A stretch of DNA of 64,000 bases from Harriotta raleighana (Eukaryota): NCBI GenBank assembly GCA_050575255.1, contig JBNZDD010013678.1:3901405-3965404 (forward strand), read 5' to 3'. Below, in pieces: positions 543-2,072 of the stretch. The position numbers and the translations under genes are program-made. How positions within the stretch are numbered: position 1 is the first letter of the stretch; each line of letters opens with the position of its first letter. The notes under the pieces were generated by a model. That model did no database searches and was not told where the DNA came from. It was given only the letters and a program-made list of their open reading frames with translations.

Positions 543-888
543 ATGAACAACGAGTTTGAGCGAGAGGTTGGCTTCATCAATAGTGAGCCATCGCTTGCCG
601 AGTGCCTGACATCCTTTCCTCCTGTTGGCGAGACATTTCAAAGTTCATCAATCAAGAACTCGACGCTTTCACATTCGACACTGATTCCTCCTCCTTTTGA
701 GCAAAGCTACTGCAGCCTGGACCATGGGAACACGCAGCAAAATGGGAGAACCCACACTTCAAAAGGCACTGGCCGGGCCACATTGGGGGAAAAACCCCTG
801 GAATATCCGTGGATGAGAGACAAGAAAAACCATAAGAGAAAAACAACACCAGCAACAGGACCATTATCGTCTTGCTCTTCCAATGAAG
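543..888 (+). CDS. HOXD2: Homeobox protein Hox-D2, exon 1
   Basis: N-terminus MNNEFEREVGFINSEPSLAECLTSFPPV..FQSSSIKNSTLSHSTLIPPPFEQ is the PG2 (Hoxa2/b2) signature; hexapeptide EYPWMR; donor GAAG|GTCAGG, phase 1. D-cluster assignment rests on synteny with Mtx2. Confidence 0.93.
645..654 (-). promoter_or_regulatory. Exonic Pbx-Hox site TGATTGATGA in HoxD2 exon 1
   Basis: TCATCAATCA lies in the SSSIK codons, the position of the known coding-sequence Hox-Pbx responsive element of Hoxa2. Confidence 0.6.
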
Positions 889-1320
889 GTCAGGTTAAAC
901 TCATTTTTCCTATAGTATTTCGTATAGTCACCGGCGGTGGTACAGGGTGTTGGGGGACATTAAAAACAATCTTAGAAATCGTGCAACGAACTCGAATTAA
1001 CAGAAAGGTGAGCTACCTGTAAAACCAACACAGGCTCAGCGTTGCATTTAATCATAAATAATGAACCAGTTAAGAGATGCTCGGAATCTGAAGCACACCT
1101 TGTGCTGTGTTTTTGAAGAATCTAAACTCCTTTTAAATGCAAGATTATTGCGAATAATTTATCCCGCAGCATCTTTTCCGTTGCTTTGCTGGGGCCAGTG
1201 TTTTGCTTAAACAGTATCTTTTGTGTATGAGTGGCGGCCATTTTATACCACTAGCTTATTACGAAAATACGTTGTAACTTATCCAAACTTTACCCCCCAC
1301 CACCCTCCCCTTCGATACAG

Positions 1321-2072
1321 AAAACGAAGAGCTTAATGAAACAGACAATGGCGGTCCCTTTGACAGCTCTAGGAGGCTACGAACCACTTACACTAACACA
1401 CAGCTGCTGGAGCTGGAAAAAGAGTTCCATTACAATAGATACCTCTGTAGACCACGGAGAGTAGAAATCGCAGCCCTACTCGATTTAACAGAAAGACAAG
1501 TCAAGGTCTGGTTTCAGAACAGGCGCATGAAACACAAGAGACAGTCTCGATTCAAGCAGAGCCAAAACTGTGACTCCAAGCGTCACTTTAACACCCCCGC
1601 GTTGAATCAAAGTGGATTCCCCACAAAGAGCTCTGCCGAGACACCTGTAAATAAAACTTTGAATTCGTTAGAGACTGAAAACTTTCCTGGGCAAGATCTG
1701 GGTGACTCTCACCATAAAGACATATTGAATGAAATCAGCAGTGACCTGCTCAGTGTGATTGATACTTCTTTATTGTACATCGAAGGCAACCAGAGCCAAT
1801 ATCTCCCTCAAACCTCAGATGGTACAGACTACTCGCTCACCATGTTGAAGAACTGCTCTGGTGGAACTACCCCGAGCAGCCCGGAGAGTTTCAGCCTTCC
1901 ATCTCTGGAGGATTTAGAAATAATTACAATCGAACCCCGACTAGATTTGATAGAGGAATTGTCGCAAATATCTTTGCTGGGAAACGAGGAATCGCTGGTT
2001 ATACCATCCAATGCGTTTGACTTTTTAAGTGACAATTTTGGCTCCACAGATTTTCAGCAGCTACAGTTTTGA
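1321..2072 (+). CDS. HOXD2: Homeobox protein Hox-D2, exon 2 (homeobox about 1368-1547)
   Basis: Pyrimidine tract plus TACAG acceptor at 1320, phase-compatible with the 888 donor; encodes [60 protein letters not shown]-terminal [17 protein letters not shown] resembles the Hoxa2 tail. Spliced CDS is 1098 nt with no stops. Confidence 0.93.

Follow-up and report, generated by a model that had tools for sequence, protein, structure and literature searches.

An intact two-exon HoxD2 gene in the chimaera Harriotta raleighana and its predicted regulation

In a 64,000-nucleotide stretch of the Harriotta raleighana genome, hereafter the window, we find what is almost certainly an intact HoxD2 gene of two exons, orthologous to HoxD2 of the elephant shark. 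The best explanation of the evidence as a whole is that this intact gene very probably supplies a working group-2 Hox protein with a likely role in the hindbrain and pharyngeal region. The gene itself is known, as an earlier note on this DNA had said: HoxD2 is on record from sharks, chimaeras, bichir and gar, to which H. raleighana adds one more chimaera species. The literature reports HoxD2 from horn shark, catshark and elephant shark, with a review in 2011 (PMC5054437), in bichir (PMC3707753) and in spotted gar, the loss being placed before or early in teleosts (PMC9774920); a pseudogene fragment is reported in the teleost Pantodon (PMC4166920). The absence of the gene from tetrapods and teleosts is taken here from these papers.

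Gene structure and splicing

The gene lies on the forward strand, where an ATG at 543 opens exon 1 (coding, 543..888), which encodes the conserved group-2 N terminus and the hexapeptide. A GT-AG intron of 432 nt in phase 1 (889..1320) separates it from exon 2 (coding, 1321..2072), which encodes the homeodomain and an acidic C-terminal region and closes with a TGA ending at 2072. The GT donor follows directly after 888, and a pyrimidine-rich AG acceptor precedes 1321; the two exons of 346 and 752 nt together encode 365 amino acids with a single stop. Exon 2 matches the Pfam Homeodomain profile with an E value of 5.7e-23. The YPWM hexapeptide core (804..815, forward strand) is encoded 40 residues before the homeodomain, whose homeobox (1368..1547, forward strand) is of group-2 type. 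The features by which we judged membership of Hox group 2 are thus present, namely the homeodomain type with YPWM in the preceding exon and the conserved N terminus. The complete, uninterrupted group-2 Hox reading frame that the earlier note had described is confirmed by frame, splice signals, Pfam homeodomain, YPWM and homeobox. A tandem repeat search at a score of 80 found none.

Among the 22 in-frame donor/acceptor pairs listed for HoxD2, we prefer 888/1321 because six of the seven chondrichthyan orthologues have a segment matching this splice and because contigs from relatives break there; the segment is also present in 4/4 ray-finned orthologues. Only the record of Callorhinchus HoxD2 is missing 8 residues where the exons meet, which fits an acceptor at 1345, 24 nt later. 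The contigs come from four read runs of relatives, which we guess to be RNA and which are ~83% identical to the window, compared over 720-2400. They span the HoxD2 exons but leave the intron interior uncovered, with breaks at 888 and 1319. In run X2, one 154-letter contig matches up to 888 with 28 letters over, and another starts at 1319; adding the 2 letters shared by the exon ends gives 30, which would be how far spliced neighbours should overlap in a contig graph of 31 letters. The joints listed for the relatives' contigs include none from 888 to 1321. A look-up of RNA data sets carrying the window returned none, a blank that says nothing about expression. Contigs that enter the intron have depths of 18 in X3 and 44 in X4, and the exon 2 depths are 111 and 143. 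Splicing at 888/1321 in H. raleighana is therefore what we infer. Beyond the stop codon, we observe a candidate 3'-UTR element (2322..2359, forward strand) made up of AATAAA and an adjacent block that is conserved in the relatives' contigs, with 1-2 differences in 31-34 nt.

The HoxD cluster and its 3' flank

The 160 kb upstream hold Evx2 on the minus strand, then genes of groups 14, 13, 12, 11, 10, 9, 8 and 5, miR-10, and groups 4 and 3, the groups being named by homeodomain signatures that we take to be characteristic of them. After group 3 come HoxD2 and a group-1 gene, so that HoxD2 stands between HoxD3 and HoxD1. The mir-10 precursor (L006:3570-3641) lies where miR-10 is expected, between the genes of groups 5 and 4. 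We also observe that an exon ~98 kb upstream (L013) encodes the start of a homeodomain like that of group 14, with an apparent intron after it. The group-13 homeodomain ~88.7 kb upstream (L014) reads WFMNRR, not WFQNRR, with Met at position 50, where Gln is the usual base-contacting residue, and the group-11 homeodomain ~72 kb upstream (L012, L015/L016) reads QVEIWFQNRR where its neighbours have QVK or QIK. The gene set of the cluster equals the horn-shark HoxD complement as given in PMC3509897.

Downstream of HoxD2, HoxD1 (exons 9127-9742 and 10212-10570, forward strand) encodes a group-1 Hox protein of 324 aa; an acceptor at 10221 is likewise in frame, and exon 1 encodes a histidine-rich run. 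The coding exons of Mtx2 (metaxin-2), the marker of the 3' end of HoxD, follow at 37460..52851 on the same strand, with the first exon placed provisionally. Nine exon matches to Leucoraja metaxin-2 lie in order on the forward strand from 37460 to 52824, and the last Mtx2 exon is 91% identical to Callorhinchus Metaxin-2. The Pfam GST_C_6 profile found two Mtx2 exons in the window; the GST_N_4 search missed the window's Mtx2 exons, and a search of the PDB returned no metaxin match. The strongest GST_N_4 match in the genome is an uninterrupted 60-residue stretch on another, low-numbered contig (G000:C4427:1335-1514), which may represent another member of the family or contamination. Records of identical length carry a D2-like protein and metaxin-2 in each of Leucoraja, Carcharodon and Amia, so the two are likely on the same chromosome; it is from these equal record lengths, in 3 species, that we infer D2-group synteny in relatives. 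The earlier note had the gene directly upstream of a group-1 gene and Mtx2; the order is right, but the actual distances are 7 kb to HoxD1 and ~35 kb to Mtx2.

Between HoxD1 and Mtx2, an exact duplication of 1,547 bp (24058-25604 and 25606-27152) flanks a single N at 25605, and ~300 bp of the duplicate is a common repeat. Such an exact duplicate on either side of an N makes the join look like an unmerged overlap, and the duplication is likely an assembly artefact of two contigs that were not merged, which supports the adjacency of HoxD1 and Mtx2. The possibility that the Mtx2 linkage is a misassembly was checked at this single-N join with its identical 1,547-bp flanks, and the linkage was not refuted; with the content of the cluster, it upholds the HoxD position. 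In the 244 kb examined, a recurring left flank is found at 7 of the 21 N runs, and since N runs with recurring flanks are likely unmerged overlaps, this assembly's small tandem 'duplications' are not to be trusted. Three tRNA-like Rfam matches on the minus strand (16322-16380, 25363-25427 and 26911-26975) sit in the ~300-bp repeat, which has many diverged copies in the region and is probably a tRNA-derived SINE; the assembly duplicate accounts for two of the three.

Orthology and homeodomain

A search with the HoxD2 protein returned 6,833 matches, and our comparisons use the best 120 of these. For exon 2, the best of the 6,833 is Callorhinchus milii HoxD2 at 93% identity, followed within the best 120 by six elasmobranch proteins (71-81%) and then by sturgeon, gar, reedfish and bowfin proteins (46-50%). 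Over the whole protein, 331 of 365 residues (91%) are identical to Callorhinchus HoxD2 (UniRef C7B9H0; P0001), a 356-aa record that, at ~7-9% divergence, is a different sequence from that of the window. Whole-protein identity is 75-84% to the elasmobranch and 49-56% to the ray-finned fish orthologues; HoxA2 and HoxB2 of the same genome have 176 (48%) and 166 (46%) identical residues.

Phylogenetic analysis with HoxA2, HoxB2 and HoxD2 proteins places the gene outside both A2 and B2. In a tree of 23 rows, the D2 (100/100), A2 (96/98) and B2 (100/99) proteins each form one side of a starred branch, and HoxD2 is sister to Callorhinchus HoxD2 with a support of 99/94. AU tests reject a grouping with HoxA2 (p 1e-88) and with HoxB2 (p 2e-45), and a 38-row mixture-model tree supports the same main split at 99/100. 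The smaller tree is the larger minus 15 rows (Danionella P0111, a fused Cricetulus row and 13 others dropped for a shorter run), and both are unrooted, without a lamprey or invertebrate outgroup. Danionella P0111, with its very long branch, stood beside the D2 group in the 38-row tree; we rejected it as a teleost HoxD2, as it has two posterior-type homeodomains and no group-2 homeodomain. The HoxD2 proteins of sharks, rays, reedfish, sturgeon, gar and bowfin all fall into the one starred D2 group. The statement that chondrichthyans retain HoxD2 thus stands, but not as sole retainers.

Within the homeodomain, HoxD2 carries T7, Y22 and R24 where A2 and B2 have A7, F22 and K24, and all but 4 of the 60 positions are the same as in HoxA2 of the same genome. 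Callorhinchus HoxD2 has the same homeodomain, and four elasmobranch orthologues differ from it by one residue. At positions 7/22/24, the best 120 of the 6,833 matches divide into 10 with T/Y/R, 1 with T/Y/K, 105 with A/F/K and 4 that lack a group-2 homeodomain match. All 11 T7 proteins among these 120 belong to the D2 group, in which T7 and Y22 are found in 11/11 and R24 in 10/11, with a linker of 37-41 residues; tetrapods, lungfish, coelacanths and teleosts contribute none of the T7 proteins. The same three residues are found in genes further posterior in this cluster as well. Ten of the D2-group proteins (P0002-P0007, P0010, P0023, P0024 and P0072) are named 'Hox-A2-like' in their sources, and several true HoxB2 proteins likewise carry this label. 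HoxD2 shares with HoxA2 and HoxB2 the group-2 N terminus, the hexapeptide and the recognition helix, and the shared helix suggests that its core specificity should match theirs. A PDB search at the cut-off used gave no group-2 homeodomain match.

These trees also bear on the claim that the gene shows the ancestral gnathostome state, which holds for the presence of the gene and fails for its sequence, given its own homeodomain residues and long branch. Of the three group-2 lineages in the unrooted tree, D2 lies furthest from the others. The terminal branch of HoxD2 is 0.051 compared with 0.018 for Callorhinchus D2, and that of HoxB2 from the same genome is 0.046 against 0.007.

That the gene might instead be HoxA2, HoxB2 or a recent duplicate of either is vanishingly improbable. 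The labels of 10 of the 11 D2-group proteins and an N terminus and homeodomain near those of A2 and B2 would speak for it, but the AU tests reject both placements, whole-protein identity is just 48% and 46%, and the neighbours are HoxD-type genes plus Mtx2. Moreover, a genome search with HoxD2 exon 1 found only its own locus and two others, at 59-60% identity; the three loci lie on three contigs, each with a Hox cluster, so that separate HoxA2 and HoxB2 genes occupy their own clusters elsewhere in the genome. Tree and synteny together rule this identity out. The distance of the D2 group from the other lineages in a tree without an outgroup leaves some room for its descent from HoxC2, or for the cluster being HoxC, and PMC5054437 notes unsettled relations among lamprey Hox2, HoxD2 and the lost HoxC2. 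We regard this as extremely unlikely, however, since Evx2, group 14 and Mtx2 flank the HoxD2 cluster, a fourth homeobox run on another contig of the same genome fits HoxC, and the chimaera HoxC repertoire, as reported in PMC12952989, has no group-2 gene. HoxD2 accordingly remains the identity of the gene.

Regulatory sequence, function and selection

In exon 1, codons 26-55 (618..707, forward strand) show a synonymous constraint common to HoxA2 and HoxB2 of the same genome, and this stretch belongs to the region that holds the ultraconserved coding element of Hoxa2. Where residues are identical, the same codon is used at 23/27 positions against HoxA2 and 21/26 against HoxB2, compared with 23/54 and 21/53 in the homeodomain (Fisher p 3e-4 and 7e-4); the bounds of the stretch were set with rough knowledge of the element's place. 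Within it lies a predicted exonic Hox-Pbx responsive element (645..654, minus strand), an exact match to the published 10-bp Hoxa2 element and also shared with HoxA2 and HoxB2. PMC2425489 reports that the 10-bp coding sequence in Hoxa2 exon 1 needs intronic sites for rhombomere-4 expression. The second Pbx-Hox-type site of A2 and B2 exon 1 is not found in HoxD2 exon 1. Upstream of the gene, a block that is likely promoter (334..450, forward strand) is homologous to the HoxA2 upstream block of the same genome (68% over 118 nt, E 1e-5), a proximal block that is among the features common to HoxD2 and the A2/B2 genes. Further upstream, a Meis-like site, 9 nt and a Pbx/Hox-like site (34..55, forward strand) recur with the same spacing upstream of HoxA2 and HoxB2. 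The composite arises in 4 of 20,000 shuffles with a pattern chosen after inspection, and its local alignments are matched by 9 and 11 of 200 shuffles, which is borderline. HoxD2 may keep a Meis, 9-nt, Pbx/Hox-like composite common to A2 and B2.

The distal sites differ. For Hoxa2, Hoxb2 and lamprey hox-alpha2, PMC6416258 defines an upstream enhancer made up of Krox20, Sox and Meis sites plus Pbx-Hox sites, and states that lamprey hox-delta2 has lost the Meis and Pbx-Hox sites and kept Krox20 and Sox. Same-genome A2 and B2 of H. raleighana have a Krox20-like site and, downstream of it, a Meis site followed by Pbx-Hox, a Meis/Pbx-Hox pair that our motif scan did not find in the 3.4 kb between HoxD3 and HoxD2. 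Two Krox20-like sites lie 1,274 and 1,209 nt before the HoxD2 ATG; such a pair occurred in 8 of 5,000 shuffles, a test chosen after inspection, and no match to the Sox pattern lies between them. The HoxA2 intron of the same genome holds three Pbx-Hox sites and one Meis site, and in the 432-nt HoxD2 intron none of the consensus patterns scanned, those for Pbx-Hox, Meis, Krox20 and Sox in their usual form, has a match. In an alignment of the distal enhancer core, A2 against B2 scored 24 compared with a shuffle mean of ~23; as this is barely above shuffle, an alignment of D2 is uninformative and the absence of the element is read from the motif scan alone. By analogy, HoxD2 resembles lamprey hox-delta2 (PMC6416258) in having Krox20-like sites without the Meis and Pbx-Hox pair, though hox-delta2 is reported to keep Sox sites and no Sox match lies between the two Krox20-like sites here; the likeness is offered as a functional analogy, the orthology of the lamprey gene to gnathostome genes being left unsettled in that paper.

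A reading in which HoxD2 was rewired and is no spare copy, having dropped the upstream Meis/Pbx-Hox neural-crest sites and the intronic rhombomere-4 sites but kept the Krox20-like sites and the exonic Hox-Pbx element, in parallel with lamprey hox-delta2, and with a homeodomain marked by T7/Y22/R24, common to D2 proteins from chimaera to gar, is possible, though we hold it as the less probable side of the question. Consensus matches are not function, and the comparison covers one genome; without its intronic partners the exonic element is, according to PMC2425489, inactive; and the reported arch expression in catshark implies some route into the arches.

On indirect signs, HoxD2 is very likely functional and expressed. 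Gaps relative to the window sum to 3 nt in X2, X3 and X4, the three runs with gaps, so that the frame survives a net deletion of 3 nt. Of 35 X2 differences assigned to codon positions, 20 fall in the third, 9 in the first and 6 in the second, a tally that draws on 40 of the 111 differences and is not a dN/dS. PMC3707753, citing its ref. 104, reports catshark HoxD2 in the pharyngeal arches and hindbrain, and the same paper predicts redundancy for HoxD2. In the main texts searched we came upon no work on how HoxD2 is regulated or what it does; PMC6416258, which compares Hoxa2, Hoxb2 and lamprey, has 0 occurrences of 'hoxd' in its main text, and the 2026 catshark neural-crest paper (PMC13200729) gives no match to hoxd, hoxa2 or hoxb2.

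Could HoxD2 nevertheless be on its way out, under relaxed selection and redundant, in a prelude to the losses seen elsewhere? Such decay would fit the predicted redundancy (PMC3707753), the gene's reported loss among lobe-finned vertebrates and teleosts, of which Pantodon retains a pseudogene fragment, the lack in HoxD2 of the upstream Meis and Pbx-Hox pair and the intronic sites that same-genome HoxA2 has kept, and an end branch longer than that of Callorhinchus D2. We nonetheless consider it improbable. The homeodomain has stayed identical to that of Callorhinchus D2 and within one residue of four elasmobranch orthologues, the synonymous constraint in exon 1 persists, and indels relative to the relatives keep the frame. 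The end branch of same-genome B2 is likewise longer, so that the length is not specific to D2.

If HoxD2 is functional, as we favour, it would act as a working group-2 transcription factor that binds DNA together with Pbx/Meis partners, contacting Pbx through YPWM; Hox homeodomains bind TAAT-core sites, and YPWM docks onto Pbx. By analogy with catshark expression, it may help to set hindbrain and pharyngeal identity, in part redundantly with HoxA2 and HoxB2. We tentatively predict that it is regulated through the exonic Hox-Pbx element, the proximal promoter block and the two Krox20-like sites, and without the upstream Meis and Pbx-Hox neural-crest pair, which HoxA2 and HoxB2 keep.

The T7/Y22/R24 signature picks out HoxD2 orthologues, 11 among the best 120 matches, most of which are hidden by 'Hox-A2-like' labels. 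With three group-2 loci in one genome, the partition of ancestral Hox2 enhancers after genome duplication can be compared directly, and this comparison yields a prediction for reporter assays. Were the tentative rewiring correct, HoxD2 would have an expression domain and targets of its own, which would explain how it could be lost repeatedly without disturbing the patterning of the hyoid arch.
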